Below are positions 20,018-53,990 of a stretch of 64,000 nucleotides of DNA, in pieces (within the stretch, counting starts at the first letter, position 1; each line of letters opens with the position of its first letter). The position numbers and the translations under genes were made by a program. The notes beneath the pieces are model-generated. The model saw only the letters and a program-made list of their open reading frames with translations. It did no database searches and had not been told where the DNA came from. This stretch comes from Polyangium jinanense (GTDB taxonomy: Bacteria > Myxococcota_A > Polyangia > Polyangiales > Polyangiaceae): positions 102,900 to 166,899 of the forward strand of contig NZ_JAGTJK010000012.1 in NCBI RefSeq assembly GCF_028435265.1, written 5' to 3'.

Positions 20018-23000
20018 ATGTCTGGACTCGTATCTTCGTGTCCGAGAAAGGGAGCCGCGTCCGGTGTCGCGGCTCGTGATCGTATTCGGCGCGGCATCGG
20101 GGCCGCGCTCGTCGTCTGGCTCGTCGCGCTCGTCGCGTCGTGCTCCGCCCGCGATGCGGAGCTCTCGATGGGCGAGACCGCGCCTCCGGAGCCGGCGCCT
20201 CTGCGCGCGCCGGGGAAACGCACGCAGACGTCCGCTCCGTTTGATCTCGACGGGGTCATGCGGCAGGTCCATTTCGCTTTCCGGAAGGACGGCGAACGCT
20301 GGACGGGCGGGCACAGCACCTACGAGGTGCGCGCCTCGACCTCGGCCTTCGCGGTTCGGCCCGCGTCTACCGAGGCGCAGGGCGCGGAGGCCACGTTCGA
20401 AACCGTCTCGATGACCCGCGGCGCGGCCCGCAACCTTCGTGGCGTCGAAGGGCGCGTCGAGCAGGATGGCCACCTCGCCATCGCGCGGGGCGACGTCACC
20501 GAGCACCTGCGGAACGACGACGAGGGCGTCGAGCAGAGCTTCTCGTTCGAGGCGCAGCCGAAGGGCCGCGGCGATCTCGAAATCCGCGTCCGGGTCACGG
20601 GCCAGGCCTACGCGGGCGAGACCGCGGCGGGGCACCATTTCGTCGATCCGGCGACGGGCCTCGGGCTTCGGTATGGCCTGGCGACGTGGATCGACGGGCG
20701 CGGGGAACGGACGGCGGTCCCGGTGCGGTATGCCAAGGCCGGGGGCGAGCTCGTCTTGACCGTGCCCGCGGCCGTCGTGGAGGGCTCCGCTTACCCTGCG
20801 GTGCTCGACCCGACGATTGGCCCGGAGTTTGGCCTGGATGCCCCCATTTATTTCCCGGTGTCCGCAGCGCAGACGTACCCGCAGGTCGCCTTCGACGGGA
20901 CGAACTTTCTCGTTACCTGGCTCGACGCGCGGCAGATCAACAAAGTCGGCCTGCAAACGGTCGTGGGCGTCCGCGTCACGCCCGCGGGCGTGATCCTCGA
21001 CCCGGGGGGCTTCGAGATCGGAAACGCGGTACACTCCAACGGCCCAACCAAGGGGCCGGCCGTGGCCTTCACCGGCACCCATTACCTCGTGGTATGGGCG
21101 GGGGGCAGCGCCGAGGGCGGCGTCGTGGTAGGCGCGCGCGTCACGCCGGACGGCGCCGTGCTGGACCCGAAGAAATTGGGAAGCCAGACCGCCGGGGTAA
21201 GCGCGATCGACGTGGCCGCCGCGGGCGCGAATTCCCTTGTCGTCTGGGCGGCCGACGGGAAGGTGCAAGCTGTGCGCGTCGACGCGACGGGCGCGGCCGT
21301 CGGCAGTCAATTCCCCGTCCTCGCGAGCACGGCCAAGATCGAGTCCAACCCCGTGGTGGGGTCGAATGGAACCGACTTCCTCGTCGCGTGGGAAGACACG
21401 CGAAACAACGCCATCGCGGACATCTACGGCGCGCGCGTGACAGCGGCCGGGGCCGTGCTCGATCCCACTGGCTTTGCCATCTCGCTCGGGGCGCAGACCC
21501 AGCTCCTCCCCTCCGTCGCCTCCAATGGAACGGACTACTTCGTCGCCTGGGAAGACGGCAGGTGGGGAAACAAAGACATCTACGGCGCGCGGGTCTCGTC
21601 GTCCGGAGCCTTGCTGGATCCGATCGGCGTGCAGGTTTCCAAGAACGCGGGAACGCAGACGTCCCCCGCTGTCGCGTTCGACGGCAGCGGGTACGTCGTC
21701 GTCTGGAACGACAATCGCACGGGCGACTCCGACATCTGGCAGGGGCGGGTCTCGGTCGCCGGCGCTGCGCTCGATGGGACCGGGACCGCGGTCGCCGTCG
21801 CCACGAACCAGCAATCCCGGCCGAGCGTCGCGTGCGCGGGCGGCGCTTGTTTCGCTGCCTGGGAAGACCTGCGCGCCGGCGGCAATGCGGCCGCCTATGG
21901 TGCGCGCTTCACGGGGAGCACGGTCGACGATGCGGGCGGCCTGATGCTCCTCTCGGCCGCCAACCAGCAGGACGCGCCCTCCCTCGCCTACGACGGCACG
22001 AACTACCTGGTCGTCTGGCAGGACCTGCGCAACAACACGAACCTCGACATCTATGGCGCGCGGGTCTCGCCGGCCGGCGACGTGCTCGATCCCTCGGGCA
22101 TCCAGGTGTCGGCCGCGACCGGCGATCAATCCTCCCCGAAGGTCGTTTGGGGCGGCAGCCAGTACATGATCGTCTGGGAAGACAAGCGCTCGGGGACCTA
22201 TTACGACCTCTACGCCGCGCGCATGACCGCGGCCGGCGTCATCACCGATCCCAGCGGGATCCCCCTCGTCGCCGTCGCCAACCGGCACGAACAAGCCCCG
22301 CAGCTCGCGTTTGACGGCACGAATTACCTCGTCACCTGGCAGGACAATCGTTCGAGCGCCTCCTCCTTCAGCGTCTACGGCGCCCTGCTGACCCAGGCCG
22401 GCACGCTGCTCCAGCCGACCGGCTTCCAGATCGGATCGCTCGGCGTGGCCGGTTTCTCTCACGCCATGGCGTTCGGCGGGGGCCAATACTTCGTGGCATG
22501 GTATACTCCGGGTATCTTGGGCGGCGTGGGGGGCTTCCGAGGGGGGCGCGTCACGACCGCCGGGGCGCTCCTGGACAACACGGCGATCGTCATTCGTAAC
22601 ACCACGACCAACGGCCCCGTTGCGACGGCGTACGACGGGCTGAACTTCACCGTCGCGTACACCAGCACTCGCGTCTTTCTGGCCCGCGTGACGGGCGCCG
22701 GGGTCCTCATCGACACCCTCGACGTCGAGCTGACCCCCTCCAATATCTACAGCAGCCATCCCGCCATCGCCTTCGACGGGACCGATTGCCTCCTCGTCTG
22801 GCGTGACGGGAGGCATGGCAACAATGGTGCCATTTACGGCAGTTGGGTGACCGAGGCCGGCGACGTCCTCACCCCCGGCGGCCAGCCCTTCGCGGGCAAT
22901 GGCGCCATGTTCCACGGTCGCCCGGCGCTCGCGAGCGACGGCGCGGGCCACCTGCTCCTCGCTTATACGAAGGGCGATACCGCGCCTCCCTTCGGAAGCA

Positions 23001-23725
23001 ACCGCATCCGCGCCCGTCTCCTCACGACCTCCCAGCCCCTCGGCGCCGCCTGCTCCGCATCGACCGATTGCGCGAGCGGCTTCTGCGCCGACGGCGTCTG
23101 CTGCAACACGAGCTGCGGCGGCTCCGCGCCCGATTGCCAGGCCTGCGCGGCCGCGCTCGGCGCCTCCGCCGACGGCACCTGCACGCCGCTCACGGGCGCG
23201 ACCTGCAACGACGACAATGCCTGCACGCAAAGCGACACCTGCAATGCGGGCGCGTGCGTCGGCGCCGCTCCCGTCGTCTGCACGGCCCAGGACGAATGCC
23301 ACGATCCCGGCACCTGTGATCCGGCGACGGGCACCTGTGACGACCCGGCGAAGGCGGACGGCGAAGCCTGCGCGGGCGGCACCTGCATGGGCGGGGTTTG
23401 CCAGAGCAGCGGAGCCGGCACGGGCGGGAGTGGCGGCAATGGTGGGAGCGGCGGCAATGGTGGAAGCGGCGGGAGCGGCGGAAGCGGCGGAAGCAGTGAA
23501 TCCAGCTCCTCGGGCACCGGCGTGACCACGACCGGCGCGGGCGGTGGAAACGACCTGGCCCCGGGCGGCGGAGCCGACCAGGCCAAGGGCTCGGCCGTAT
23601 CCGTCGGCTGCCAGGCCGCGAATGCGCCTGCGACGGGCGCTCCGATCGCCGCGCTGATGCTCGCCGCCGGGCTCCTCGCTCGTCGACGCGTCACCTCGCG
23701 CCGCCGCGCCGCCTCTCTCGCCTGA
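20018..23725 (+). CDS. Repeat (beta-propeller-like) surface lipoprotein with a Cys-rich module, Gly/Ser linker and MYXO-CTERM-type tail (1235 aa)
   Basis: The lipobox reads LVALVASC. About 15 repeats of ~50 aa follow the pattern (D)IYGARV(T/S)..G.VLDP.G..(V/I)S....Q..P.VA.(D)G..YLVVW.D.R. The Cys-rich part is CSASTDCASGFCADGVCCNTSCGG...CQAC. The linker is (GGS/GGN)n. The tail is SVGCQAANAPATGAPIAALMLAAGLLARRR. Confidence 0.8.
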   Translation: MSGLVSSCPRKGAASGVAARDRIRRGIGAALVVWLVALVASCSARDAELSMGETAPPEPAPLRAPGKRTQTSAPFDLDGVMRQVHFAFRKDGERWTGGHSTYEVRASTSAFAVRPASTEAQGAEATFETVSMTRGAARNLRGVEGRVEQDGHLAIARGDVTEHLRNDDEGVEQSFSFEAQPKGRGDLEIRVRVTGQAYAGETAAGHHFVDPATGLGLRYGLATWIDGRGERTAVPVRYAKAGGELVLTVPAAVVEGSAYPAVLDPTIGPEFGLDAPIYFPVSAAQTYPQVAFDGTNFLVTWLDARQINKVGLQTVVGVRVTPAGVILDPGGFEIGNAVHSNGPTKGPAVAFTGTHYLVVWAGGSAEGGVVVGARVTPDGAVLDPKKLGSQTAGVSAIDVAAAGANSLVVWAADGKVQAVRVDATGAAVGSQFPVLASTAKIESNPVVGSNGTDFLVAWEDTRNNAIADIYGARVTAAGAVLDPTGFAISLGAQTQLLPSVASNGTDYFVAWEDGRWGNKDIYGARVSSSGALLDPIGVQVSKNAGTQTSPAVAFDGSGYVVVWNDNRTGDSDIWQGRVSVAGAALDGTGTAVAVATNQQSRPSVACAGGACFAAWEDLRAGGNAAAYGARFTGSTVDDAGGLMLLSAANQQDAPSLAYDGTNYLVVWQDLRNNTNLDIYGARVSPAGDVLDPSGIQVSAATGDQSSPKVVWGGSQYMIVWEDKRSGTYYDLYAARMTAAGVITDPSGIPLVAVANRHEQAPQLAFDGTNYLVTWQDNRSSASSFSVYGALLTQAGTLLQPTGFQIGSLGVAGFSHAMAFGGGQYFVAWYTPGILGGVGGFRGGRVTTAGALLDNTAIVIRNTTTNGPVATAYDGLNFTVAYTSTRVFLARVTGAGVLIDTLDVELTPSNIYSSHPAIAFDGTDCLLVWRDGRHGNNGAIYGSWVTEAGDVLTPGGQPFAGNGAMFHGRPALASDGAGHLLLAYTKGDTAPPFGSNRIRARLLTTSQPLGAACSASTDCASGFCADGVCCNTSCGGSAPDCQACAAALGASADGTCTPLTGATCNDDNACTQSDTCNAGACVGAAPVVCTAQDECHDPGTCDPATGTCDDPAKADGEACAGGTCMGGVCQSSGAGTGGSGGNGGSGGNGGSGGSGGSGGSSESSSSGTGVTTTGAGGGNDLAPGGGADQAKGSAVSVGCQAANAPATGAPIAALMLAAGLLARRRVTSRRRAASLA

Positions 23726-23815
23726 TTCGCTCCCCCCTCATTCTTGTGCGCTCGATTTGCCATCCCGTAACCTGGGTCGCCACGGGACTCCTGCGGCCTG
23801 TAGGGAGGGCTTGTC

Positions 23816-25396
23816 ATGACCTCGCACCGTGCGCTCTCACCCTCGTCGAATGCTCGCCTTTGGGGCAACGGTGCCGCCCTGATGCTCGTGGGCGCTGCTG
23901 TGCGGTTTCTTCGGCTTGCGTTTCCGCTGCTCTTCGCTGTTTGCGTCTCGGTATGGCTCGTCGGGTGCGGGGCGGCGGGCGTGCGCGCGGAGGGATGGGC
24001 GCAGGAGCTCCAGGGCAAGAGCTTGTTTCGCGTCTGCCGGCGTCATCCCCGCGTCGGCCCGCATGCGCGCTACTGGTACGAGCTCGGGGACGGAGTGCAT
24101 CGACCGGCGTTCGAACCGCTCGAAAAGCTCCTGGAAAACCCTTCGGTCAAGGCCGTCTTCATCCATGACCCCCACGCGCCGCCCGAGAGCCGGAGGCTTT
24201 TGGGGCTCGCGTATCAGGATCTGCCCTGCGACAAGCCGCCGCCGCCGCCGCCGCCGCCGCCCGAGAAGATTGCGGCGGAAGAGCCGGAAGCCGGGCCGGC
24301 CAAGCGCACCACGGTCCGAACCGAGACGCGGACGTCGGCGATGAGGCCCTGCGAGAGGCCGCGCAAGAGGCCACCCGATCAGCGTTTCCTCGGGCAAACG
24401 GCGCCCACGCCCGCTCCGATGCCTGGGACGAGGGTGCCGTGTCCGCCGCCTCCTCCGGGGAAGACATACGAAGAACAGAAAGTCAACCTGGCGCGGAGGG
24501 ACGCCGAGGAGGAGGCGAGGCGCACGGGGGAGCGGATCGGGCGCGAGTGGGGGGCGACGCTCGGCAAGGCGGCTGGAGTGAAGGACTCCATCGACGTCAC
24601 GTATTTAGGAAACTTCGATTATGACATTCGGGACAAACCTGATGCCGAAGTCTTCGAAGTCATCCGGACCAATCTTGCCAAACAACTCGATGCAATCCCT
24701 GACCTGCCGACATACGACGACGAGCGGCTCGCCACGATCGCCTGGGAGGGCTTCCTCAAGGGGTATGGGCGAGGCTGGGCGGACGCCGAGCTGAAATTCG
24801 CGATCGTGAACGCCCTGGCGGACACCTTGTTGATGGTCGCCTCCGGGGGAGCGGCGGCCCTGGAGACCGTGGGGGCGAGGGTGCTGCGGGGCGCCCAGCA
24901 GAGGCTACGAAGTATGCCGGTGTTCCTGCCGAGCGCGGCGGGCGGACCGGGCGGGTTCTTGCGGCGGCCGAAGCTGCCGAGTCCGCCGGCCGCGAGCACG
25001 CCGAAGGCAGTGGCACCGCCCAGCGCGACGACAGTCACGACGACGACGAAGCCGGTCAGGGCGCCGAACGGCGCGGCGGGGCAGGCGGGGGCGCCGAAAA
25101 TTCGGAACCAGCACCTCGCGGGCAAGAACCACCCCAAGACCGGGGTGCCCTTCGATGCCGAGGGGTATCCGGATTTCAAGGCTGCTGGCGTCGTAAAAAG
25201 GGAGGTAAAGATCACCCAGACGGGGGACCGGCCTCATGATTACCGGCTCGCGAATGAGGCAGCGGGAGAGAAAGTAACGCCCAAAGACCATACGTGGCAC
25301 CATCACCAGGACGGGAAGACGATGCAGCTCGTGCCCACACAAATTCATGCGGACACAGGACATACCGGCGGGGTCGCAACGAAGGGGAGACCATGA
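23816..25396 (+). CDS. Polymorphic-toxin lipoprotein with a C-terminal HNH/EndoVII-fold nuclease domain (WHH / GH-E-like)
   Basis: A GGGAGGG RBS lies 7 nt upstream. The signal/lipobox reads FAVCVSVWLVGC. The middle is Pro-rich (PPPPPPPPP). The C-terminal ~100 aa reads HLAGKNHPKTGVPFDAEGYPDFK...DYRLANEAAG...HTWHHHQDGKTMQLVPTQIHADTGHTGG, the signature of the WHH/GH-E clade of HNH/EndoVII toxin domains. Confidence 0.75.
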   Translation: MTSHRALSPSSNARLWGNGAALMLVGAAVRFLRLAFPLLFAVCVSVWLVGCGAAGVRAEGWAQELQGKSLFRVCRRHPRVGPHARYWYELGDGVHRPAFEPLEKLLENPSVKAVFIHDPHAPPESRRLLGLAYQDLPCDKPPPPPPPPPEKIAAEEPEAGPAKRTTVRTETRTSAMRPCERPRKRPPDQRFLGQTAPTPAPMPGTRVPCPPPPPGKTYEEQKVNLARRDAEEEARRTGERIGREWGATLGKAAGVKDSIDVTYLGNFDYDIRDKPDAEVFEVIRTNLAKQLDAIPDLPTYDDERLATIAWEGFLKGYGRGWADAELKFAIVNALADTLLMVASGGAAALETVGARVLRGAQQRLRSMPVFLPSAAGGPGGFLRRPKLPSPPAASTPKAVAPPSATTVTTTTKPVRAPNGAAGQAGAPKIRNQHLAGKNHPKTGVPFDAEGYPDFKAAGVVKREVKITQTGDRPHDYRLANEAAGEKVTPKDHTWHHHQDGKTMQLVPTQIHADTGHTGGVATKGRP

Positions 25397-25397
25397 C

Positions 25398-25916
25398 ATG
25401 GAAATCACAGACCGCGGAGAACCTTTGAGCGAGCAGGCCCTCCGAGAGTTGGAGGAGAAGCTCGGCGTGCGCCTGCCCGAACCCTATCGCCGGTTTTTGC
25501 AAGAGTACAATGGAGGCCGGCCAGACCCGGACATACTCGACATCGCCGGAGCCCCCTTCAAGGGCGCGGACGTCCACGTATTCTTTGGCCTAGGACGAGA
25601 GTACGAATCCGAGGATCTCTTGTGGAACAATGAGGACTGGAAGCGGCCCAGCTTGGGCAATGATGTCCTCGCAATCGCGTGTGATTCAGGCGGAAGCCTC
25701 TTCGGCATCGTCACCGAGGGGGAGCAGCGAGGCCGCGTGTACTATTTCGACTACTATGCGGACTGGGAGCCCTACTTCGTCGCCAGCGACTTCGACGCGT
25801 TCCTCCAGAAACTGCGAGCGTGGACGCCCGAGGAGCTAGCCGAGATCAAAAAGCTCGCGGCGGAGAACGCGGCGGCGAACGCCGCGGAGCTTGACCCCGA
25901 CAAACCTGCCGAGTAG
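25398..25916 (+). CDS. SMI1/KNR4 (SUKH-1) family immunity protein
   Basis: The ATG lies 1 nt after the toxin stop, preceded by gaaggggaga. LSEQALRELEEKLGVRLPEPYRRFLQEYNGG...VLAIACDSGGSLFGIV...GRVYYFDYY...FVASDFDAFLQKL is the classic SUKH-1 pattern. Confidence 0.8.
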   Translation: MEITDRGEPLSEQALRELEEKLGVRLPEPYRRFLQEYNGGRPDPDILDIAGAPFKGADVHVFFGLGREYESEDLLWNNEDWKRPSLGNDVLAIACDSGGSLFGIVTEGEQRGRVYYFDYYADWEPYFVASDFDAFLQKLRAWTPEELAEIKKLAAENAAANAAELDPDKPAE

Positions 25917-25932: not shown

Positions 25933-26616
25933 ATGGACGACCAACTCGACCTCGGTCCGGCGTACGCGCCGTCCGCCGCGTCGCCGCCCGCCGCGCCCCT
26001 CCCCAGCGTGGTCGCGCCCTACGAAAGGGTGGTGATGTTCTCTTTCCCGGTCGGCGTCGTGGTCGGGCTGGTTGTAGGCTCTGTGGAGTATCTCCGGTTC
26101 GCCTACGCGCTGAGCTTCTTCGATCCGGACAAGCTCCTCCCGTATTTCACGGGCATCGCCGTGCTCCGCGTGATAGGCCCCTCCAGCGCCATGATCGCCG
26201 CATCGATCACGGCGGTCCTCGTCCTTCATCGCGCCGGGCGCAGGGCAAGCGGACCCATCGAGATCGATCACGCGCGCGTGCTCCTCGTCCTGGCGGCGCT
26301 CCCACATCTCACGGTCGTGACGATGCCATTCTGCGTCCTCGGCGCCCTGCTGGTGTGGCTTGCAAGAACCGCGGGAGCCGTGACCGTGTTTTTGAAAGCC
26401 ATGCTCGACGTCGGGGTGATATGGACCCATTTCGCTTTCGGCCTGGCCTTCACCGCGCTCTGCGGGCTTTGGCTCACGTACCTGCTCCGCATCGGGGCAA
26501 ACTGGCTCACCACGAAGAAGCACGGCCTCGCCCTGAAGCTCTTCGTCGCATTCGCCTCGCTCGCCATACCCAATGCTGTTCTACGGGCTGTCCTTTCGCT
26601 CGTGGATCCGGTTTGA
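25933..26616 (+). CDS. Hypothetical polytopic membrane protein (~227 aa)
   Basis: ATG at 25933 (MDDQLDLG...), in frame with track ORF 25891..26616. About 5-6 hydrophobic helices. No family was recognised confidently; any MlaE-like resemblance is too weak to call. Confidence 0.5.
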   Translation: MDDQLDLGPAYAPSAASPPAAPLPSVVAPYERVVMFSFPVGVVVGLVVGSVEYLRFAYALSFFDPDKLLPYFTGIAVLRVIGPSSAMIAASITAVLVLHRAGRRASGPIEIDHARVLLVLAALPHLTVVTMPFCVLGALLVWLARTAGAVTVFLKAMLDVGVIWTHFAFGLAFTALCGLWLTYLLRIGANWLTTKKHGLALKLFVAFASLAIPNAVLRAVLSLVDPV

Positions 26617-26644
26617 GCCCGCTCTTCCGGTTGCACACCTCAGC

Positions 26645-26926
26645 TACCCAGCGGGTCGTCCTCAGCGAGCCGGCAGGCCGTCCTCGTCCTTCCGCAGGCC
26701 GTCGTCACCTACGCGGCAAGCCGTCCTCGTCCTTCCGTAGGCCGTTCTCATCTACGCGGCAGGCCGTCCTCACCTAACCGGAAGGCCGTCCTCACCTACC
26801 CGGCAGGCCGTCCTCGTCCTCCCGCAGGCCGTCGCCACCTACCCGGCAGGCCATCCTCAGCCTCCGAGAGCCTGGCCTCAGCGAGGCAAAAGCCCATCCT
26901 CGTCCTCCCGCACCCCGTCCTCAACC
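26645..26926. repeat. Non-coding array of ~13 degenerate tandem repeats (20-23 bp; alternating long/short units give a ~43-bp super-unit)
   Basis: Example units are tacgcggcaggccgtcctcacc, tacccggcaggccgtcctcgtcc and tcccgcaggccgtcgccacc, sharing the core GGCCGTC(C/G)TC. The array fills most of the 393-bp gap between 26616 and 27010. Stops interrupt the frames I read through the array and no track ORF spans it. Confidence 0.85.
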
Positions 26927-41611: not shown

Positions 41612-44600
41612 ATGACGACTGCAGAACAGAGCCAGGGCGCCACGGAGAGCATTCCGAGCAAGCTCGGGAAGTTCGCCACGGAGCAGATCGACAAGGCCGA
41701 GGTCACGGTCACGAAGGGCGTCTCTACCGTCCGTGACTCCACGAACCAGATCATCAGCAAGGCCGAAGAGCAGATCCTCAAGCTCAACAAGGCCCTCTAC
41801 GAGACCAAGAACGGCATCTCGTCCGGCATCGACACGGCCATCAAGGAGACGGAAGGCCAGCTCAAAGGGATCACGCCCGAGCTCAAGAAGATGGGCGAGG
41901 ATGCGATCAAGACGGCCAAGGACAAACTCGACGGACTCGTCGACGAGGTCGAGGGCAAGCTCGAATCGCAAAAAGACTCGCTCGTCAAGACGGCGCAGGA
42001 TCAGATTCGGAACGCGGCCGATCAGGCGAAGGGCAAGATCGACGAGATCGGACAGCTCGGCGAGGATCAGGCGAAGAAGGTCCTCGATGCGGTCAAGACG
42101 CAGGCCGACACCGTCGATCAGAAGCTCGGCGATCTCGAGGGGCAGATCGACGGCAAGATCCAGGCGATCGGCGACGACGTGCGCGGCAAGTTCGAAGCGG
42201 CGCTCGCCAAGGTGCCGGATCACGACGGCGCGAAGGTCGAGATGTCGGCGAACGTCGACGCCGTCGTCGCGGAGCTGCGTAGTGCCACGAAGGACTCGAT
42301 CGAGCAGGCGCGCGAGACGCTCAAGTCGCTGGTCAAGCAGACCGACGACACGATCATGCAGACGATCGGCGACGTGCGGCGCGCGATCGGCGAGGTCCCC
42401 GCTCGCATCAACCAGTGTGCGCAGGACATCCTCGCGAAGGTCAATGACGCGATCCAGAAGACGATCGACGAGATCTCGAACCTCGCGCACGGGCTCGTGG
42501 CGCGCACGGCGGAGCTGCTCAACCAGGCGCTGCTCACGATCACGAGCACCGTCGACAAACTCCTCGCCGACGGCTTCGCGCTCGTGCGTGGGATCAAGGC
42601 GGATCTCGATCGTCTCCTCGACAAACTGCTCGAACAGATCCGGGATCTGACGCTCGGCACGCTGGAGGACGTCCGCAAGGCGGCGAACGAGCTACTCGGC
42701 ACGTTCGAGGCTGAATGCAAGAAGATCCTCCAGACGATGGAGGAGTCCGTCATCGGCTCGGTCGAGGAGCTCGGCGGCAAGATGAACGCCTCGATCAAGG
42801 CGCTCCAGGCCGACCTGAACCTCGATGCCGACAAGATCGTCCGGGACCTCGTGGCCGAGGGCGCGAAAGGGCACGACGACGCGCTCGCCGACTTCATCAG
42901 CGCTGGTTATTCCGAGGACACCTCGGTCATCCCCAAGATCCGGGCCAAGGGCGAGGCTGCGATCAAGCAGATCGAGGCCAAGACGAAGGCCCAAGGGGAG
43001 AAGCTGATCAAGGACTTCGAGATGCAGGCGACCCTGCTGAAGCCCAAGATCCAGGCGCAGGGTATCAAGGTCGTCGCGCAGATCGCCGCGCTCGGACCGA
43101 AGCTTGCGATGCAGGCGGTCCAGATTGCGACGAGCATCGCGTCGTCCATCAAGGACAAGGGCGAGGCGGTCAAGAAGACGTTCGAGGAGCTGCAAAAGAC
43201 GCTCGTCGACGCGATCACGAAGAAGATCCCCGATTACCTCGAAAACTGCAAGAAGCAGATCAAGGCCGCGGCCGATGCGCTCGTCGAGGCGGGCAAGACG
43301 TTCTACGAGAAGACGCTCGCCGACATCATGGGGGCGATCAAGGCGGCCGAGGCGCGGTTCAAGCAGCTTGCCTCGGAGATGAAGGACCTCATCGAGACGC
43401 AGGTCCTCGCGCTCGTGGCCTCCATTCGCAGGACGGTGGAGACGTCCATCCAGCGCTTCAAGGATCTCGGCGCCGCGTTCGAGGAAAAGACGAATGCGCT
43501 CGTCAACGACATCCCGGCGCGGCTCATCAAGCTGGAGCAGGTCGCGCGGCTCGCGGTCGAGCGCGAGATCACGCTGGCGAAGGGGCTCGCCAATGCGACG
43601 AAGGACGACATTCTCCTGAAGGCGCGGACGACGCTGTCGGAGATCAAAAAAGCGGCGTACGGGGTCCTCGGCGGCATCCGGGGCGATTTCGGCGCGGTGC
43701 AGGGATCGCTCGCGCTCATCGTCCCGGCGGGCGCGGGGCTCGACGCGGCGGGCGCGATCAACCTCGCGGTCTCGGGCGGGCTCGAAGGGATGATCGCGTC
43801 GGCGGCGAATGCGGCGCAGGCCGCGGTGACGGCGGGCGTGAATGCGGCCGAGGCCGTGAACAATGCAGCCGAGCAGGCGGCGGCCGCGATGAGCGCGGCT
43901 GGATTCGACGGCGCGGCGAAGTCATTGACGGACGTGCTCTCGCAGCAGATGGGCGAGGTGCGGACGGAGGGCGAGAAGGCCAAGAACGTCATTGCCGCGG
44001 CGAAGGAGAAGATGACGGCGGTCGCCAAGGAGGCGACGGACACCTGCACGCAGGCGGCGCAGGCGGCGCAGGCCGCGGCCGCGGAGGTCGTGGCGGCCGC
44101 GAATTCGACGGGCGACGCGATCAAGGCGTCGGCGGAGAACCTGACGAAGGGCCTCGAAAAGGCGAAGGACATCGTCAAGGATGCCGGCAAGGCCGCGATG
44201 CAATCGATGAAAGAGGCCCAGGACGTGCGCAAGGGAGGCGACGGCGCGCAAGCCGGCGCGGGTGCGCAGGCCAAGGCCGGCGGGGCGGATGGCGCGGCGG
44301 CGGGCGCGGATGCGGGCGGCGCGGATGGCTTGGCGGTGCCCGAGGGCGAGGCGGCGGCTCCGGAAGGGGAGGCGGCCGCGGCTCCGGGCGGCGCGGAGGC
44401 GGCTCCGGACGGCGCGGCGGCGGCTCCGGATGTCAAGGCAGCGGCTCCGGATGCCAAGGCGGCGGTTCCGGATGCCAAGGTGGCGGTTCCGGATGCCAAG
44501 GTGGCGGTTCCGGATGCCAAGGTGGCGGCTCCGGATGCCTCGAAATCGGCGCCGGATGTCCCGAAATCGGCGCCGGATGTCTCGAAACCGGAACTGGACG

Positions 44601-45289
44601 TCTCGAAACCGGAACCAGGCGCCGATGTAGCGGCGGTGGCCGCCAAGGTACCGGATCCGGCTGCCAAGGTAGCGGCTCCGGCCGCCAAGGTAGAGGTGCC
44701 GGCCGCCAAGGTAGAGGCGCCGGCCGCCAAGGTAGAGGCGCCGGCCGCCAAGGTAGAGGCGCCGGCCGCCAAGGTAGAAATTCCGGGCGCCCCGAAAGCG
44801 GCGCCGGCCGCCAAGGTAGAAATTCCGGCCGCCCCGAAGGCGGCGCCGGCCGCCAAGGTAGACATTCCGGCTGCCAAGGTAGACGTTCCGGCTGCCAAGG
44901 CGGTGCCCGGCGTGCCGGAAGGCAAGGCTCCGGCGCCCCCAGGCAAAGCTGCGATGCCGGAAGGCAAACCGCAGGTGCCCGAAGGCGGCATGCCCGGGGT
45001 GCCAAAAACCGGCGAAAAGCCCGCCTTTCCTCCCGCCCCCGCGCCTCAGGCCCCCGCGCCTCCCGCTCCGGCGGACGTGGCCCCCTTCGCGCCCGCGCCG
45101 AAGCCGCCGGCCGCGCCCGCCGTCCCTGCCGGCGCGAAACCCGCGCCCGCCGCGCCCGCCGCCCCCGTGATCCCTGCCGGCGCGAAACCCGCGCCCGCCG
45201 CGCCCGCGCCGCCCGCCACGCCCGCGGCCAAGCCCGTCGTTCCCGCCGCCCCCGGCAGCAAATGGCCTGGCAGCGGCAACAAGCCTTGA
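41612..45289 (+). CDS. Uncharacterised 1225-aa helical-repeat protein with a Pro/Ala/Lys-rich tandem-repeat C-terminus, last gene of the T6SS core operon
   Basis: It starts 53 nt after tssG on the same strand. No signal peptide or TM helix is evident. The first ~870 aa are K/E/D/A/Q-rich amphipathic-helix-like sequence (for example KAEEQILKLNKALYETKNGISSGIDTAIKETEGQLKGITPELKKMGEDAIKTAKDKLDGLVDEVEGKLES). The last ~350 aa contain AVPDAKV, SAPDV(P/S)K and PAAKVE(A/V/I) heptad repeats and then an AP-rich tail. No enzymatic motif was recognised. Confidence 0.75.
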   Translation: MTTAEQSQGATESIPSKLGKFATEQIDKAEVTVTKGVSTVRDSTNQIISKAEEQILKLNKALYETKNGISSGIDTAIKETEGQLKGITPELKKMGEDAIKTAKDKLDGLVDEVEGKLESQKDSLVKTAQDQIRNAADQAKGKIDEIGQLGEDQAKKVLDAVKTQADTVDQKLGDLEGQIDGKIQAIGDDVRGKFEAALAKVPDHDGAKVEMSANVDAVVAELRSATKDSIEQARETLKSLVKQTDDTIMQTIGDVRRAIGEVPARINQCAQDILAKVNDAIQKTIDEISNLAHGLVARTAELLNQALLTITSTVDKLLADGFALVRGIKADLDRLLDKLLEQIRDLTLGTLEDVRKAANELLGTFEAECKKILQTMEESVIGSVEELGGKMNASIKALQADLNLDADKIVRDLVAEGAKGHDDALADFISAGYSEDTSVIPKIRAKGEAAIKQIEAKTKAQGEKLIKDFEMQATLLKPKIQAQGIKVVAQIAALGPKLAMQAVQIATSIASSIKDKGEAVKKTFEELQKTLVDAITKKIPDYLENCKKQIKAAADALVEAGKTFYEKTLADIMGAIKAAEARFKQLASEMKDLIETQVLALVASIRRTVETSIQRFKDLGAAFEEKTNALVNDIPARLIKLEQVARLAVEREITLAKGLANATKDDILLKARTTLSEIKKAAYGVLGGIRGDFGAVQGSLALIVPAGAGLDAAGAINLAVSGGLEGMIASAANAAQAAVTAGVNAAEAVNNAAEQAAAAMSAAGFDGAAKSLTDVLSQQMGEVRTEGEKAKNVIAAAKEKMTAVAKEATDTCTQAAQAAQAAAAEVVAAANSTGDAIKASAENLTKGLEKAKDIVKDAGKAAMQSMKEAQDVRKGGDGAQAGAGAQAKAGGADGAAAGADAGGADGLAVPEGEAAAPEGEAAAAPGGAEAAPDGAAAAPDVKAAAPDAKAAVPDAKVAVPDAKVAVPDAKVAAPDASKSAPDVPKSAPDVSKPELDVSKPEPGADVAAVAAKVPDPAAKVAAPAAKVEVPAAKVEAPAAKVEAPAAKVEAPAAKVEIPGAPKAAPAAKVEIPAAPKAAPAAKVDIPAAKVDVPAAKAVPGVPEGKAPAPPGKAAMPEGKPQVPEGGMPGVPKTGEKPAFPPAPAPQAPAPPAPADVAPFAPAPKPPAAPAVPAGAKPAPAAPAAPVIPAGAKPAPAAPAPPATPAAKPVVPAAPGSKWPGSGNKP
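44420..44900 (+). repeat. In-frame 21-bp tandem repeat blocks inside the 1225-aa gene
   Basis: Block 1 (~44420..44625) has units like gcggttccggatgccaaggtg and ggcgccggatgtcccgaaatc. Block 2 (~44655..44900) has units like ccggccgccaaggtagaggcg. Several adjacent units are identical. Confidence 0.85.
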
Positions 45290-45296
45290 AGAGCGC

Positions 45297-45686
45297 TCAG
45301 GGCACCTGCACCGTGACCTGCCCGGGGAACGAGATCTGAATCACCCCGCCCCACATGCACATCAGCTTCGAGCTGTTGTTCAGCGCGGGCATGTTCGCGA
45401 GCAGCACCGTTGGGGCACCGACGATCCACGGCGCCGGCGTGTTCGGAATGCACGGCATTGGCGTGAGCACGCCCATCGCCGCCGCCGTCGCCGCGGCCAC
45501 CGTCGGGTTCGCCAGGCTCTGACACATCCCGAACGGCAGCACGTTCAGCATGGGCTTGCCGTCCATGATGTTCGCCAGCGGCCCCGCGCTGTTCATCGTC
45601 CGGTTCGCGGGAAGCACCGTGAGCGAGCTCGGCGCCACGCCGAAGCTGCATTGCATCATCGCCCCCATGCATACGTGCTGGCCCAT
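45297..45686 (-). CDS. DUF4280 (PAAR-like) spike-tip protein, stand-alone
   Basis: 129 aa. GAMMQCSFGVAPSSLTVLP...NVLPFGMCQSLANP...PCIPNTPAPWIVGAPTVLLANMPALNNSSKLMCMWGGVIQISFPGQ matches the DUF4280 pattern (C.FG...L.V...FG.C...C.P...W...C..GG.I.I...GQ). It is the last gene of the vgrG operon. Confidence 0.8.
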   Translation of the reverse strand: MGQHVCMGAMMQCSFGVAPSSLTVLPANRTMNSAGPLANIMDGKPMLNVLPFGMCQSLANPTVAAATAAAMGVLTPMPCIPNTPAPWIVGAPTVLLANMPALNNSSKLMCMWGGVIQISFPGQVTVQVP

Positions 45687-45688
45687 CG

Positions 45689-46441
45689 TCAGCCTCCCGC
45701 GAGCTTGTTCACGACCTTGTCGAAGAAGGACTCTTTTTTCTCCTCCTTCGCCTTCGGAATGCCCTTGTCGTCGTACTCGACCTCGCCGCGCTTCTCGCCG
45801 TCCTTGTACGTCGCCTTCGCCTTCAGCTTGCCCTGCACGTCGTAGCTGAACGCGTCGCCTTGCTTCTTGCCGTTGTCATAGATGGCGCGCTCGCGGACCT
45901 CGCCGTTCGGGAAGTACTCGATCACCTCCCCGTGCAGTTTGTCGGCCTTGTAGCTCGCTTTGCGCAGGGTGTTGCCCTTGCCGTCGAGGAACAAGGATTC
46001 CCCTTCGAGCTTGCCGTTCTTGTAGAACGACCGGACGACCTCGTTGCCCTGCTCGTCGAACGACATGAACGGGCCGTTCTGCTTGCCCTTCTCGAAATGC
46101 ATGAGCGTCCGGAGCCGGCCGTCGTCGTAGAGCCGCGTCGGCCCGTGCTGCTCGCCCTTCGCGAACGTGACGATCTGCGAGACCTTGCCGTTCTCGTCTA
46201 CGATCTTCGTCTCGCCGTGGAGCACGCCGTCCTGGAATGACGAACGCTCGACCTCGCGTCCTTCCGGATCGTACGTGATCGACAAACCGTGCAGCTTGCC
46301 GTTCTTGTAATTCGCCCGGTGCGCGATCTGCTTTTCGGTCTCCCCGTACTGGACGAACTCGCCGTGGAGCACGCCGTCTTCCATCTCGAACCGGGAGATC
46401 AGCTTGCCGTTCTCGTCGCGCTCTTCGTGGTCGGTCGGCAT
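45689..46441 (-). CDS. MORN-variant repeat protein (YwqK-family-like)
   Basis: 250 aa with ~9 repeats of the form Y.NGK.HG....Y...G (NYKNGKLHGLSITYDPEG, FQDGVLHGETKIVDENG, FYKNGKLEGESLFLDGKG, YKADKLHGEVIEYFPNG...) and a Lys-rich tail. It lies between vgrG and the DUF4280 gene with 10- and 2-nt spacers. Confidence 0.75.
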   Translation of the reverse strand: MPTDHEERDENGKLISRFEMEDGVLHGEFVQYGETEKQIAHRANYKNGKLHGLSITYDPEGREVERSSFQDGVLHGETKIVDENGKVSQIVTFAKGEQHGPTRLYDDGRLRTLMHFEKGKQNGPFMSFDEQGNEVVRSFYKNGKLEGESLFLDGKGNTLRKASYKADKLHGEVIEYFPNGEVRERAIYDNGKKQGDAFSYDVQGKLKAKATYKDGEKRGEVEYDDKGIPKAKEEKKESFFDKVVNKLAGG

Positions 46442-46451
46442 CGGATCCTCG

Positions 46452-48452
46452 CTAATTGATCTTCACCATGCCGCCCTTCAAGGTCAGCATGCCGCCGCCC
46501 TCCACCGCCGCCTGCGCGCCGCCCTTCGCCTTCAGCGCGATCGCGCCCTCGAGCGTCATGTTCGTCCCGCCCTTGGCCTTGAAATCGGTGCCGGCCTTCA
46601 GGTCCATCGCCGTCCCGGACTCGGCCTTGAAATCCGTGCCCGCCTTCATCGAAAACGCCTGCTTGGCCTTGATCGTGACGCTCTTCGCCTCGATCACGAG
46701 GTCGCCGTCGACCTTGATCGTGTAGTTCTTCGTCACCTTGTAATCGAGGTTCGCCTTGTTCGTGTGCGCCTCGTCCTTGGTGACCGTGAGCGTGCGTTTG
46801 CCCTTCACGCTGTGCGTCTCGTCGCCCTTGTCGACCTTGATCGTGCGGTTGCCCTTGGTGACCGTGAGCGTCTCGTCGCCCTCCTCGATCGTCACCTTCC
46901 GCTCGTTTTTGACGTTCTTCGTGTAATCGTGGAGGACCTTGACCGTCCAGTCGTTCTCCACCTCGAAGAGCATGTCCTTCTGGGCGTGCGCGTAAAACTC
47001 CTCGTTATCCTTCTTGTCGTCGAAGCGCAGTTCGTTCCCCGCCTCGCCCTCCTTCGACGATCGGCTCAGGATCGTGCTCTTCGTCTGCGCGCCCGGCAGC
47101 CCATAAGGCACCGTCTGCTCGGCGTTGTACACCGAGCCCGTCACGAGCGGCCTGTCCGGGTCGCCGTCGATGAAGCTCACGACGACCTCCTGCCCGATGC
47201 GCGGCAAGAACCACGCGCCCCAGCTCTTGCCCGCCCACGCCTGCACGACGCGCACGAAGCACGAGCTCTTGTCGTCCTTCGCGCCCTTGCGATCCCAGTG
47301 GAACTGGACCTTGATGCGCCCGTATTCGTCGGTCCACTGCTCCTCGCCGCTCTTGCCCACGACGACGGCCGTCTGCGTGCCGGGGATCGCGGGCTTCGGC
47401 GTGATGCGCGGCGGGCGGTACGACGTCTTCTTCGGGAACGCCTCGAAGGTATTCGTGTACCCCTCCTGGCTTGCGCGGTGCATGATCGAGGTGAGAACCC
47501 AGTCCGTGTTCGCGTCGTCCCGATCGTGCTCGTCGAGCTTGAACGCGTGCCCCGCCGTGAAGGCGCGGCAGCTCGATGTACCCGACAAACGCACCGCCCG
47601 CGCCTCCTCGGCCTCGATGCGGAGCTTCGCGCGCGTGTCGCCCGGGCTTTTCTCGATGTGCCCGCCCGGGTACTCGAAGAGCTCGAGCTTGGCCGTTTCG
47701 CCCGAGACCTCCGCGAGCAGCGACGTGCTCGGCATCTCGAAGTTGTAATCCGTCGACGCGTACTTTCCCGCGACGATCTCCTCTTCGAGCGTGCACTCGA
47801 GGACGGCGTCCTCGTCCGTCGACGTGGAGAACTGCTCGACGAACCGCGCCTTGTCGAGGTTCGGGCACGGCGCGGCCGACGCGCTGTCGTCCGAGAGCAC
47901 CATCACGTGCTTGCCGTCCTCGTGCTTGAAATAATAATGGATCCCCTCGTCCTCCATGAGCCGCGACACGAAATCGAGCGCGGTCTCCTGGTACTGCACG
48001 CAGTAGGGGCGCGGGGTGTAGGAGCCCTTCAGCGAATCCTTGAAGTGCTCGCCCGACGAGAAGCCGAGCTCCTGGAAGAGCGCCTTCAGGATGTCGGGCA
48101 CGCTCTTCTCCTGGAAGATCCGGCAATCGCTGGTCTTGCCGAGCAGCCATAACCACGGGTGCAGCTCCGCGCGGTAACGCGTCTGCTTGCCGACGCGCCC
48201 CGCCTGGACGAACCGCGTGCAGATCCCGTGGATGAAGCGCGGCTTCTCCTTGGCCATGCCCCGGATCGTCAAGGTCACGCCCTTGCCGACGATCGCCTTG
48301 AAGTCGAGCGCCTTCTCCGGCGACAAAAGCTCGAGCTCGAAGCGGAAGAGCCCCGAGATCCGCTCTTCGCCATGCAGATCGACGAGCAGCACCGCGTCCG
48401 CGCCGAAGGGCGTCGAGATGGCGATGCCGAGGGTGCCCTGCGGATAAGGCAT
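46452..48452 (-). CDS. vgrG: T6SS spike protein VgrG (TssI), no C-terminal effector extension
   Basis: 666 aa. LLVDLHGEERISGLFRFELELLS..., YRAELHPWLWLLGKTSDCRIFQEKSVPDILKALF and RVVQAWAGKSWGAWFLPRIGQEVVVSFIDGDPDRPLVTGSVYN are followed by gp5-like beta-helix repeats (HSVKGKRTLTV.., DYKVTKNYTIKVDGDL..). Confidence 0.92.
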   Translation of the reverse strand: MPYPQGTLGIAISTPFGADAVLLVDLHGEERISGLFRFELELLSPEKALDFKAIVGKGVTLTIRGMAKEKPRFIHGICTRFVQAGRVGKQTRYRAELHPWLWLLGKTSDCRIFQEKSVPDILKALFQELGFSSGEHFKDSLKGSYTPRPYCVQYQETALDFVSRLMEDEGIHYYFKHEDGKHVMVLSDDSASAAPCPNLDKARFVEQFSTSTDEDAVLECTLEEEIVAGKYASTDYNFEMPSTSLLAEVSGETAKLELFEYPGGHIEKSPGDTRAKLRIEAEEARAVRLSGTSSCRAFTAGHAFKLDEHDRDDANTDWVLTSIMHRASQEGYTNTFEAFPKKTSYRPPRITPKPAIPGTQTAVVVGKSGEEQWTDEYGRIKVQFHWDRKGAKDDKSSCFVRVVQAWAGKSWGAWFLPRIGQEVVVSFIDGDPDRPLVTGSVYNAEQTVPYGLPGAQTKSTILSRSSKEGEAGNELRFDDKKDNEEFYAHAQKDMLFEVENDWTVKVLHDYTKNVKNERKVTIEEGDETLTVTKGNRTIKVDKGDETHSVKGKRTLTVTKDEAHTNKANLDYKVTKNYTIKVDGDLVIEAKSVTIKAKQAFSMKAGTDFKAESGTAMDLKAGTDFKAKGGTNMTLEGAIALKAKGGAQAAVEGGGMLTLKGGMVKIN

Positions 48453-50098: not shown

Positions 50099-53000
50099 AT
50101 GAGCAAGAAGATGCCGACGAAAGGGGTGCTCACGTTCGAGGCCGAGGGCAGCGACTCGAGCAGCTCGCCTTATTACTCGCGCGTGCTCCACCACCCGACG
50201 ATGGGGTCGGGCGTGACGATCGGCCGCGGCTACGACATGAAGGACCGTTCGTCCGCGGACGTCGAAAAAGATTTCGTCGCGGCGGGTCTGTCCGCGGATG
50301 TCGCGAAGAAGTATGCCAAAGGCGCGGGGCTCACGGGGTCCGAGGCGCGGACGTTCGTCACGAACAACAAGGGCGTCTTGCCCGAGCTCACGTGGGACCA
50401 GCAGCTCGCGCTCTTCGAGTCCACGTATGCGTGGCACGAGAAGGACGTCAAGCGCATCTGCGACAAGGAAGATTGTCAGAACATCTACGGCGTCGTGGAC
50501 TTCAAGACGCTCCACCCGCGCATCCTCGACGTGCTCGTGGATCTCAGGTTCCGCGGCGACTACACGCCCGCGTCGCGCAAGCGCATCCAGAAGCTCGTCG
50601 TCGAGAACGATTATGCGCGCTTCCGCGCGGACCTCTCCAATCGGTCGAACTGGAGCGCGGTGCCGGAGGACCGTTTCGATCGGCGGAGCAAGTACCTGAA
50701 GGACGCGCCGCAGACGGACGACACGGCCGATCACGAGGATGTGACGTACAGCACGCCGACCAAATCGTTTGACCTCAAGACGATGGGCGAGGCAGAGCTC
50801 TACGATCACCTCCGGAGCGTGTGGAAGGCGGAGCAGAAGGCGTTCGGCAACGAGGGCAAACCCGAATTCGACTTCCAGGACGAGGAGGGCCGCGTGAACC
50901 TGCTCGGCGCGCGCGGGTTCGACGCCGACCAGATGGTGCCCGTGCCGAGCACGAACACGAAATACGACGACACGCTTTTCCTCGTCTACAAGAAGGACGG
51001 CGCGAAGCACGTCGAGAAGTTCCACTACTCGAGCGAGTGGACGAGGACGGGCTCGAAGGGGGCCGTGATCATCCTCGGGCAGCACAAGTACTGCCTGGCG
51101 ATCCACAAGAAGCTCAAGGAAGACGGCACGCCCTACCCGTACAACAAGCTCCCCGCGTGGCGCGATTACTACAACACGAACAAGACGCAGCCGCCGGGAG
51201 CCGGTTACCGCGCATTGAACCCGGACCCGACGGTCGGCATCGTCCGCGTGCACGATGCAAGCGCGGCAGGATCCGTGGGCGCTGAGACCACGGGGGTCAC
51301 GCAGAACGCCTCGATCAACATCCATTACGGCGGCGAGGTGCCGAGCGGCTGGACGCCCAGCAAGGGGTGGTCCGACGGGTGCCAGGTCCTCATGCGCGGC
51401 GACCGGTACCTGCGGTTCATGGAGGTCATCGAGTCCGATCACTCCCTGAAGGGCACGATCAACAACGAGCTCGCGCCCAAGCCTTCGGCCGACGGGAAGC
51501 GGTCGCTCATCTACACGCTCGTCAAGGGCGACTCCCTCGCGCCGAGGGACGCGCCGTCCATGGGGTTCCCCGTGGACATCGGCAAAGGGAAGAAGATCGA
51601 CAATTCGACCACGCTCGCGATGTTCGAGCACACCGAGAAGACGATCGACAGCGGCTATTTCCCTCTCGGGACGAATACGACCTGGCACGGCGGCGCCCAT
51701 TTGCACGTCGCCGAGGGGACCGCGGTCCACGCGATGTTCGACGGGCGGATCGTCGCCGCGCGGCTGCCCGCGGCGGCGGACAAATCGAAGGGGGCCTTCG
51801 GCAGCAGGAACTTCATCCTGATCCGGCACGAGATCGACGGGGATCGCTTGAACAAGGCGAATGCCCTGCTCAAGCGCACCCTCATCGGGTACACGATCCG
51901 CGCCGAGACGCTCGTGCTCCGCAAGGAGCCGGGCAACGCCGCGGCCGTCGTCGATACCTTGAAGGTGGGCGACGAGGTGCTGCTGAAGACCGTCCCCCAT
52001 CCGAAGAAGGACGGCGTCTCGTGGGCGCACGTCGTCGTTTCCAAATCGGCGAAGGAAGGCCTGAAGGACAAGGTCGGCTATGTGGCCGCCACGTCCTTGC
52101 TCGTCACGCCCAGGTACGCGCCGCCGAAGGAGCGCGTGAAGCCGTCCGAGACGCGGGTGGTGTATTCGCTCTACATGCACCTCGGGCCCCAGGCGCTCGA
52201 CACGACGAACTCCGTCCTCGCCTCGATCCCCTGGGTCTCGGGGGCGCAGTGGAGCGTGTCGGACGACGTCCGGCTCCGCAGCGCGCCGGGCGTCCCGGAT
52301 CCGGACAAGACGCAGATCGGTACGCTCGTCTCCGGCGACACGTTCGTGCAGCTCACCCCCGACCTCGTGACCGCGGGGAGTTATCAGTGGATGAAGGTCC
52401 GCGTCACCAAGGCGAAAGACGCGAAGCTCGCGAACAAGGAGGGGTTCGTCGCGAAGCTCGACAAACGCATGAGCCTCACGAAGGCGCCGAGCGCGGAGAT
52501 CCTCGACAAGCTCAAGTCCGGCGACGTGGTCAAGCTCGACAAACCGGTGGTCGCGGGGGAGCAGATCTGGACGGCGGGCACGATGACGGGGGCCTCGGGT
52601 GGGGCGCAGGCGGGCATTCACTGGGAGGTCTTCTCGGAGCAGCCCCTCTTCCCGGACTGGCCGTCCGCCGACGATCCCGACGAAAATCTGAACATGGACG
52701 TGAAGAAGATTTTCGACATGATCGAGCAGGAGTTCTGGGGGTACAACGACACGATCTCCGCGTCCGAGCTGAACGATTTCTACAAGAACAATCCCAAGGC
52801 GAAATCGCTGCGATACTACGCGTGCCGGTTCATGAGCGAGTGGGGCTGCGACATCGACAAGGCCGTCGCGCAGATCCAATCGAGGGGGCTCTACAGCGTC
52901 TCGGGGCTCGCCGACAAGATGCGGCCCTACCTGTGGTGGAAGGAGGCGGAGGGCAAGAAGGTGGAGCTGCCGAAGAGCCCGATCGTCTGGCACTACAACC

Positions 53001-53986: not shown

Positions 53987-53990
53987 GCCG

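Follow-up and report, generated by a model that had tools for sequence, protein, structure and literature searches.

SitA toxins work as barcodes of self-identity in Myxococcus and decide between which strains merging is possible, and all six described SitA families belong to a single myxobacterial branch, Cystobacterineae. Their loci frequently, but not obligatorily, carry an upstream accessory gene, sitB. SitA proteins are lipoproteins without Lys at position +2, in which a family-defining escort domain of ~375 aa is joined to a C-terminal nuclease; each has a downstream SitI immunity gene, delivery depends on TraAB, and the six families are non-homologous (PMC5562445, PMC8546572, PMC10433427). 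Which route the toxin takes into the cell is set by the escort domain (PMC5562445, PMC8546572). SitA1/SitI1 combines a lipoprotein WHH toxin with a SUKH protein (PMC5562445), and the homologues of SitA1/2 and SitA3 in the original SitA paper were all from Cystobacterineae. Here, we describe a cassette with a similar layout in the soil myxobacterium Polyangium jinanense (NCBI RefSeq assembly GCF_028435265.1, contig NZ_JAGTJK010000012.1, positions 102,900 to 166,899 of the forward strand; this stretch of 64,000 nucleotides is the window). The cassette holds a gene for a predicted lipoprotein nuclease toxin, a SUKH immunity gene and a gene for a membrane protein (Table 1).

With moderate confidence, we read the cassette as one member of a family of polymorphic nuclease toxins in Polyangiaceae, which are outer-membrane lipoproteins with an organisation like that of the SitA/SitI system of Myxococcus. 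An earlier note on this DNA had called the toxin and its immunity gene SitA/SitI-like: the architecture and the probable logic agree with that description, but the toxin falls into none of the six described SitA escort families, as judged by an indirect comparison.

The toxin and immunity genes

The earlier note had seen a lipobox, a poly-Pro linker and a C-terminal HNH/EndoVII nuclease in the 526-aa protein, and the three features were recovered here. The N-terminus runs from a basic n-region with Arg residues through the hydrophobic stretch LAFPLLFAVCVSVW to the lipobox L48-V49-G50-C51, which we judged by eye and with a regular expression, without a signal-peptide predictor. The codon of Cys51, read from the translation, occupies 23966-23968 and is followed by G-A-A, that is, position +2 is Gly and not Lys. 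The poly-Pro run lies at about aa 141-150, directly after ...LPCDK, and the C-terminal end reads ...HTWHHHQDGKTMQLVPTQIHADTGHTGG. Export of the toxin as a lipoprotein is thus predicted, and we regard it as highly likely.

At the C-terminus, the profile search identified WHH (PF14414) at aa 485-522 (E 1.7e-15, 56.9 bits against a cut-off of 25.1), together with Colicin-DNase (PF12639) at aa 446-518 (E 2e-13). Residues 424-524 align to the C-terminal toxins of Rhs proteins in the PDB, 8bd1_A (E 2e-15) and 8h8a_B (E 5e-15). This alignment covers the core WHHHQDGKTM.L.P, and W494-H495-H496, H511 and H516 line up with the solved toxin 8bd1_A. By these alignments, the C-terminal domain is a predicted WHH nuclease with its catalytic residues in place. 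Against NCBIfam, neither the toxin nor the immunity protein nor the neighbouring genes gave an informative match.

The second gene starts at 25398, 1 nt past the TGA stop of the toxin (25394-25396), as the earlier note had also stated. It has its own Shine-Dalgarno sequence, GAAGGGGAG, at 25381-25389 within the 3' end of the toxin gene. A longer start at 25347 was dropped in favour of 25398 because of this Shine-Dalgarno sequence, the 1-nt spacing conserved at two other loci (L001 and L027) and the start of the alignment. The 172-aa product matches the Pfam models SMI1_KNR4 (PF09346; E 1.5e-20, 74.5 bits, cut-off 25.4) and SUKH_6 (E 5e-19, 69.3 bits), which agrees with the SUKH-1 assignment made before. 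Judging by its position, the SUKH-1 gene is translationally coupled to the toxin gene, and we are strongly confident that the cassette is a toxin/immunity pair.

The deposited genome of P. jinanense (GCA_028435365.1) shows the same order as the window: the 1235-aa protein, the toxin, SUKH, a 227-aa membrane protein, the 166-aa open reading frame (ORF), TssK, DotU, TssM and TssA. The toxin is 99% identical to its 'HNH endonuclease', and the same immunity gene (172 aa) is called there 1 nt past the toxin gene. The GC content at third codon positions (GC3) is 0.73 in the toxin domain and 0.76 in the SUKH gene, compared with 0.85-0.9 in neighbouring genes.

Table 1. Positions in the window of the cassette features, and copies of the membrane gene at other loci
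Feature	Position	Strand	Basis
Shine-Dalgarno-like GGGAGGG, 6 nt 5' of the toxin ATG	23803..23809	+	sequence
Toxin ORF, ATG start, 526 aa	23816..25396	+	translation
Type II (lipoprotein) signal peptide, aa 1-51, ending at lipobox L-V-G-C	23816..23968	+	translation
Escort module 1, aa 52-197: small Cys/Pro-rich domain, poly-Pro run and basic linker	23969..24406	+	alignment, profile matches
Escort module 2, aa 198-404: helical bundle	24407..25027	+	AF2, profile positions 148-350
Thr-rich junction TTVTTTTKPV..., beyond which members carry different toxins	25028..25084	+	motif positions across paralogues
WHH (HNH/EndoVII) nuclease domain and stop codon	25085..25396	+	Pfam, PDB alignments
SUKH-1 (SMI1/KNR4) immunity gene, 172 aa	25398..25916	+	Pfam, sequence, deposited gene call
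Conserved multi-pass membrane protein, ~226 aa, start MDDQLDLG, directly after the SUKH gene	25933..26616	+	orthology, profile
Membrane-gene copy, L001	12113-12793
Membrane-gene copy, L003	11949-12629
Membrane-gene copy, L004	11971-12654

The escort region and its family

The N-terminal region had been described in the earlier note as matching no recognised escort domain, and it has no known domain. We divide it into two modules. Module 1 carries the motif WAQ..FRVCRRHP...YWY.LGDG...DP.AP.ESR.LLG...LPCD, with invariant and possibly disulfide-forming cysteines C24 and C88 (mature numbering, alignment A2); in distant relatives the motif becomes VC.RPP.V.P...YD..AP.S...LP....L.C. This module (profile positions 1-140) matches only lipobox-bearing proteins wherever the N-terminus is intact. 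Module 2 ends in RLRSMPVFLPSAAGGPGGFLRRPKLP, with the family pattern RLR.MP.F.PG..GG.G.F, and matches lipoproteins as well as Rhs proteins of Sorangium So ce302, So ce1504 and So ce124. In P0042, P0043, P0044 and P0048, it stands downstream of the RHS core '...YYHGARYYAPWLGRWTSADP...' and ahead of the toxin. As post-core cargo of Rhs proteins, module 2 is unlikely to be an export device; it is probably delivered with the toxin and more likely comes into play in the recipient cell, perhaps during passage through the inner membrane. The AF2 model of the mature escort region had a mean pLDDT of 53, with 75-89 for the helices of module 2 and low confidence for module 1, and Foldseek of this model against the PDB gave no match at E<1, only generic helical bundles.

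Within module 2, the segment at ~24566-24715 (toxin aa ~251-300) is mosaic among paralogues and has a GC3 of only 0.58. These mosaic differences and the low GC3 suggest internal recombination inside the escort region.

With the mature region (alignment A2) as the profile, an exhaustive HMMER search of 1.84 billion representatives matched 65 cluster representatives in total. Organism names were looked up for 20 of these 65 and not for the other 45; all 10 that were named are Polyangiaceae. The whole escort region was matched by Polyangium proteins only. The many Cystobacterineae matches expected of a detectable SitA escort homologue did not appear in this search. A homologue search returned 20 proteins (P0001-P0020) with a common N-terminal region and C-termini that are not necessarily alike; the named ones are all from Polyangium, and four come from metagenome assemblies. 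All full-length members of this set keep the lipobox L[LVF][GA]C-GA, as do most distant relatives with intact N-termini. The full-length members also keep the ~350-aa region and the junction TTV(T/K)TTTKPV. According to these alignments, the N-terminal ~350 aa define a previously undescribed family of predicted polymorphic toxins, whose named members are all Polyangiaceae.

Beyond the junction, the C-termini are WHH, HNH/HNH_5, Tox-GHH (PF15636), PF15650 or unassigned, and in distant lipoprotein relatives the toxins are AHH or unassigned. The immunity type co-varies with the toxin: SUKH accompanies WHH, and DUF4265 or RraB-like proteins accompany HNH and an unassigned toxin. P. fumosum has three tandem cassettes (WHH+SUKH, HNH+DUF4265/RraB and WHH+SUKH). 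One syntenic hotspot is found in P. jinanense, P. mundeleinium, Polyangium sp. 15x6 and P. sorediatum, where toxin and immunity genes stand between thiolase and MFS genes on one side and Ser/Thr kinase and VWA genes on the other; its contents are HNH+DUF4265, HNH with a small ORF, or WHH with a long SUKH. Local tblastn located SUKH fragments that persist past non-SUKH immunity genes at L001 (9443-9526), L002 (12012-12113), L003 (11825-11929) and L004 (11823-11951), and remnants of cassette genes (SUKH and/or the 3' end of the membrane gene) also at L005 (12580-12729) and L006 (12566-12721). The leftover SUKH fragments are therefore read as the footprint of toxin/immunity replacement by recombination. 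Since remnants of SUKH and of the membrane gene lie beside other toxin/immunity pairs, they suggest that the ancestral cassette had the order toxin-SUKH-membrane gene and that modules were displaced later.

Two loci of the family show a further form of immunity gene. At L005 (11676-12545) and L006 (11631-12539), a long SUKH of 289-302 aa is paired with WHH toxins that are 76-80% identical to the toxin domain of the window, whereas their SUKH is ~26% identical to the SUKH of the window. By these identities, divergence has been far greater in the immunity proteins than in the toxins. At L025 (4849-7441), in a Polyangiaceae metagenome-assembled genome (MAG), a distant family member has an ORF with an SpvB domain 25 nt upstream and its AHH toxin domain in a separate overlapping ORF, probably through frameshift or decay.

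At four loci that differ in toxin type, the immunity gene is followed by an orthologue of the third gene of the cassette (63-90% identity), and 3'-end remnants of this gene persist at two further loci, both in the hotspot. Because the orthologues stand at loci with different toxin and immunity types, the membrane gene tracks the conserved N-terminal region and not the toxin, and its product is probably an accessory factor of the cassette. Candidate roles are lipoprotein handling or self-protection at the inner membrane. The profile of this protein matched only MlaE chains in the PDB, weakly (6xbd_G, E 0.0026), and its score against the Pfam model MlaE (PF02405) was 15.8 bits (E 0.011), below the cut-off of 22.5. 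We did not assign it as an MlaE permease, given the sub-cut-off score and no mlaF or mlaD nearby at the loci inspected, and the likeness is kept as a lead only. The single-sequence AF2 model (pLDDT 48.6) was unusable.

Several features link the cassette to SitA/SitI: a lipobox without Lys at +2, a conserved N-terminus of ~350-400 aa followed by a swappable C-terminal nuclease, an immunity gene directly downstream in the operon, and several paralogous loci per genome. SitA1/SitI1 is the closest in kind, with a WHH toxin and a SUKH partner in both, and the WHH domain is ~70% identical to that of Corallococcus lipoprotein toxins. In contrast to SitA, the escort region is bimodular with one module common to Rhs cargo, a conserved MlaE-like membrane gene lies downstream, and no association with phages or plasmids was detected, as tblastn of the escort region against phage and plasmid collections gave no match. 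The N-terminus has no detectable homology to those of the Corallococcus WHH lipoproteins either (hhalign probability 0.2%).

Membership of the SitA1/2, 3, 4, 5, 6 or 7 escort families was considered and rejected. The comparison is indirect, as it was made through the Corallococcus N-termini and the exhaustive profile search and not with reference SitA sequences; the Corallococcus WHH lipoproteins match no SitA model in NCBIfam, so this database is unsuited to a test of SitA membership. With no homology to the Corallococcus N-termini and no Cystobacterineae matches, we therefore treat the region as a new escort family, predicted to follow a SitA-like logic and set apart from SitA1-7 by this indirect comparison.

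Other systems share single parts of this design. The C-terminal WHH toxins of Rhs proteins (8bd1_A, 8h8a_B/8h8b_A) are homologous nucleases (E about 1e-15), and in the Sorangium Rhs proteins the same helical module precedes the toxin, after the RHS core; the toxin described here, however, lacks RHS repeats and core, and a lipoprotein leader replaces the Rhs shell. The entry domains of CdiA-CT and colicins are a functional analogy only: they too are conserved, cargo-borne domains just N-terminal to variable nucleases, an arrangement to be expected if such a module carries the nuclease through the inner membrane of the recipient, but there is no sequence match (Pfam) and no fold match (Foldseek against the PDB, E<1). 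A role in inner-membrane entry has also been proposed for SitA escort domains (PMC8546572).

Delivery and rival explanations

In the organisation that we favour, that of a SitA-like outer-membrane lipoprotein, Sec would export the precursor, Cys51 would receive the lipid, and Lol would carry the lipoprotein on to the outer membrane, in line with Gly and not Lys at +2. The toxin would then reach neighbouring, probably related, cells through shared outer-membrane material: by TraAB-type outer-membrane exchange if Polyangium has traAB, and otherwise by membrane vesicles or contact fusion, with the adjacent type VI secretion system (T6SS) not being the route. In the recipient, module 2 would aid the nuclease across the inner membrane, and the WHH domain would cut nucleic acid unless bound by the cytoplasmic SUKH protein. 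The MlaE-like membrane protein may be a partner of the conserved N-terminal region and not of any particular toxin, with a part in handling, release or self-protection. By analogy with Myxococcus, TraAB-dependent exchange specifically would be a tentative choice of route, and we consider it rather doubtful.

Several points weigh against this SitA-like organisation. It rests on sequence analysis, as does the predicted localisation, and the +2 sorting rule derives from Myxococcus and may not hold in Polyangium. We found ~2-5 family loci per genome, compared with 25-80 sitAI loci in Myxococcus. No sitB-like upstream gene is conserved, the upstream genes differing at every locus. The gene stands on the same strand as a T6SS ~1.8 kb away, and Rhs proteins share both its toxin domain and its module 2. 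TraAB is a further point. Myxococcus traA and traB were recovered with primer-derived probes (for traB, a 20-mer) and confirmed by NF033759 and NF033763; the DK1622 traA 35-mer had no match in the genome collection. Two TraB searches, with the best 120 matches listed (to E ~1e-138), gave Cystobacterineae and one 'Polyangia bacterium' MAG, which scored 680 bits against the NCBIfam cut-off of 700; no Polyangium was seen among these best 120 matches. Among genera of Polyangiaceae, traAB is present in Sorangium, Byssovorax, Aetherobacter and Minicystis and absent in Chondromyces, and outer-membrane exchange was undetectable in Sorangium cellulosum despite its traAB (PMC6372800).

These findings on TraB, on S. 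cellulosum and on Chondromyces, as well as the low copy number per genome, speak for a lipoprotein toxin that is independent of TraAB, shed in vesicles or released from the surface against prey or competitors generally, in a bacteriocin-like or predatory manner. The module common to Rhs cargo adds to this, suggesting a generic entry device for several delivery routes. However, cytoplasmic SUKH immunity, rapid swapping of toxin and immunity genes and tandem arrays typify intraspecific conflict, there is no receptor-binding or lysis gene, and the named members are confined to one bacterial family, as is usual for kin-directed systems; we judge such a general weapon unlikely, although of appreciable weight. 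A Polyangiaceae-own system of three genes, made of toxin, immunity and MlaE-like partner, with module 2 as a portable inner-membrane entry device for lipoprotein and Rhs toxins, seems to us rather improbable; the MlaE-like protein would then be the dedicated partner of module 2, for instance by extracting the lipoprotein toxin or by barring its re-entry into the producer.

The T6SS itself could be the vehicle, with the toxin as its cargo and SUKH as the immunity partner. A likely TssJ gene from 27693, on the strand of the toxin and ~1.8 kb past the SUKH stop, bears out the distance of about 2 kb upstream of the T6SS locus given in the earlier note, and solved Rhs proteins (8bd1, 8h8a-c) carry the same WHH domain as their C-terminal toxin. 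Module 2 is found in Rhs proteins of Sorangium. The cassette also resembles T6SS effector-immunity pairs in having a nuclease toxin and an adjacent immunity gene next to a T6SS cluster in this genome, but it differs from them in its Sec/lipoprotein signal, in lacking an adaptor or spike domain, and in an adjacency that is not conserved elsewhere. According to Pfam, neither the toxin nor its surroundings contain PAAR, VgrG, Hcp, MIX/FIX, DUF4123 or an Rhs element. None of nine other family loci (on other contigs or in other genomes) had T6SS genes within 6-10 kb. The membrane gene, a 285-bp repeat array and the 166-aa ORF stand between the cassette and the T6SS genes, and the T6SS has its own VgrG/MORN/DUF4280 module. 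The conserved Sec/lipobox leader and the conserved, possibly disulfide-forming, cysteines imply export to the envelope before any loading into a T6SS. With this leader, no cargo domains and no linkage at nine loci, we did not place the toxin among cargo or specialised T6SS effectors, and we regard that role as quite improbable. The argument of the earlier note that a lipoprotein leader speaks against T6SS delivery is thus supported by a lipobox conserved across the family. Delivery independent of the T6SS is likely, and the adjacency appears incidental.

Finally, the cassette might be no interbacterial weapon, and serve instead as an envelope nuclease for scavenging of extracellular DNA or control of self-DNA, with SUKH as a safeguard against enzyme in the wrong compartment, or be decaying and inactive. 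Fragmented or frameshifted family copies (P0012, P0016, P0017, L025) point in that direction. Against it, the ORF is intact with the W-H-H and His residues of the catalytic site present, the immunity gene is coupled to the toxin, polymorphic toxin types are paired with matching immunity genes, and conservation across species is 74-86%; the overall pattern is that of polymorphic toxin systems and not of a housekeeping nuclease. We consider this explanation very improbable.

Neighbouring genes and significance

The T6SS cluster spans ~27.7-41.6 kb, with TssK from 28174 and DotU from 29528, followed by TssM, TssA, Hcp and TssF. The component matches have E-values far beyond chance, and TssB/C and TssE were assigned by position. 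No recognisable ClpV/TssH was present among the window ORFs scanned. After TssF/TssG, a 1225-aa protein with apolipoprotein-like helical repeats is encoded at 41612-45289 (+), and the divergent VgrG-MORN_2-DUF4280 (PAAR-like) module of the T6SS lies at 45297-48452 (-). Near the T6SS (50099-54665), a 1295-aa protein with PG_binding_1 and an M74-like peptidase is adjoined on the opposite strand by a 224-aa PG_binding_1 protein; the two may form a cell-wall-targeting effector/immunity pair.

The repeat array between the membrane gene and the 166-aa ORF ahead of the T6SS occupies 26638-26923 and consists of ~10 copies of a 22-nt unit; it also scores as a 43-nt period with 4.7-6.2 copies (consensus ...CCGGCAGGCCGTCCTC...).

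Directly upstream of the toxin, at 20018-23725 (+), a 1235-aa protein has a lipobox-like LVASC, a Cys-rich region, a MYXO-CTERM-like tail, many beta-propeller-like repeats of the type '...VAW.D.R...DIYGARV', and no Pfam match. It was considered as a TraA-like receptor and rejected: models of TraA, PA14 and Cys repeats gave no match, and the other toxin loci do not conserve it. At the far end of the window, a 2092-aa ORF at 57347-63625 (+) has a MopE-like metal-binding motif as its sole Pfam match, and the opposite-strand ORFs with high GC3 appear to be its shadows.

At the level of the family, current annotations of the genes described here do not go beyond 'HNH endonuclease' or 'hypothetical protein'. 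If the escort region is unrelated to SitA, this would suggest more than one origin or diversification of the design in which a lipoprotein escort is joined to a swappable nuclease. For nuclease toxins delivered to the envelope, import is the step that is understood least. Module 2 is common to lipoproteins and Rhs cargo and is therefore a candidate import domain.

For the biology of Polyangium and Sorangium, the cassette would offer a simple killing assay for outer-membrane exchange, a question left open after the null result in S. cellulosum (PMC6372800). If the three-gene system proved true, it would give the first genetic readout of how outer membrane is shared in Polyangia, a group in which a search for exchange did not detect it.

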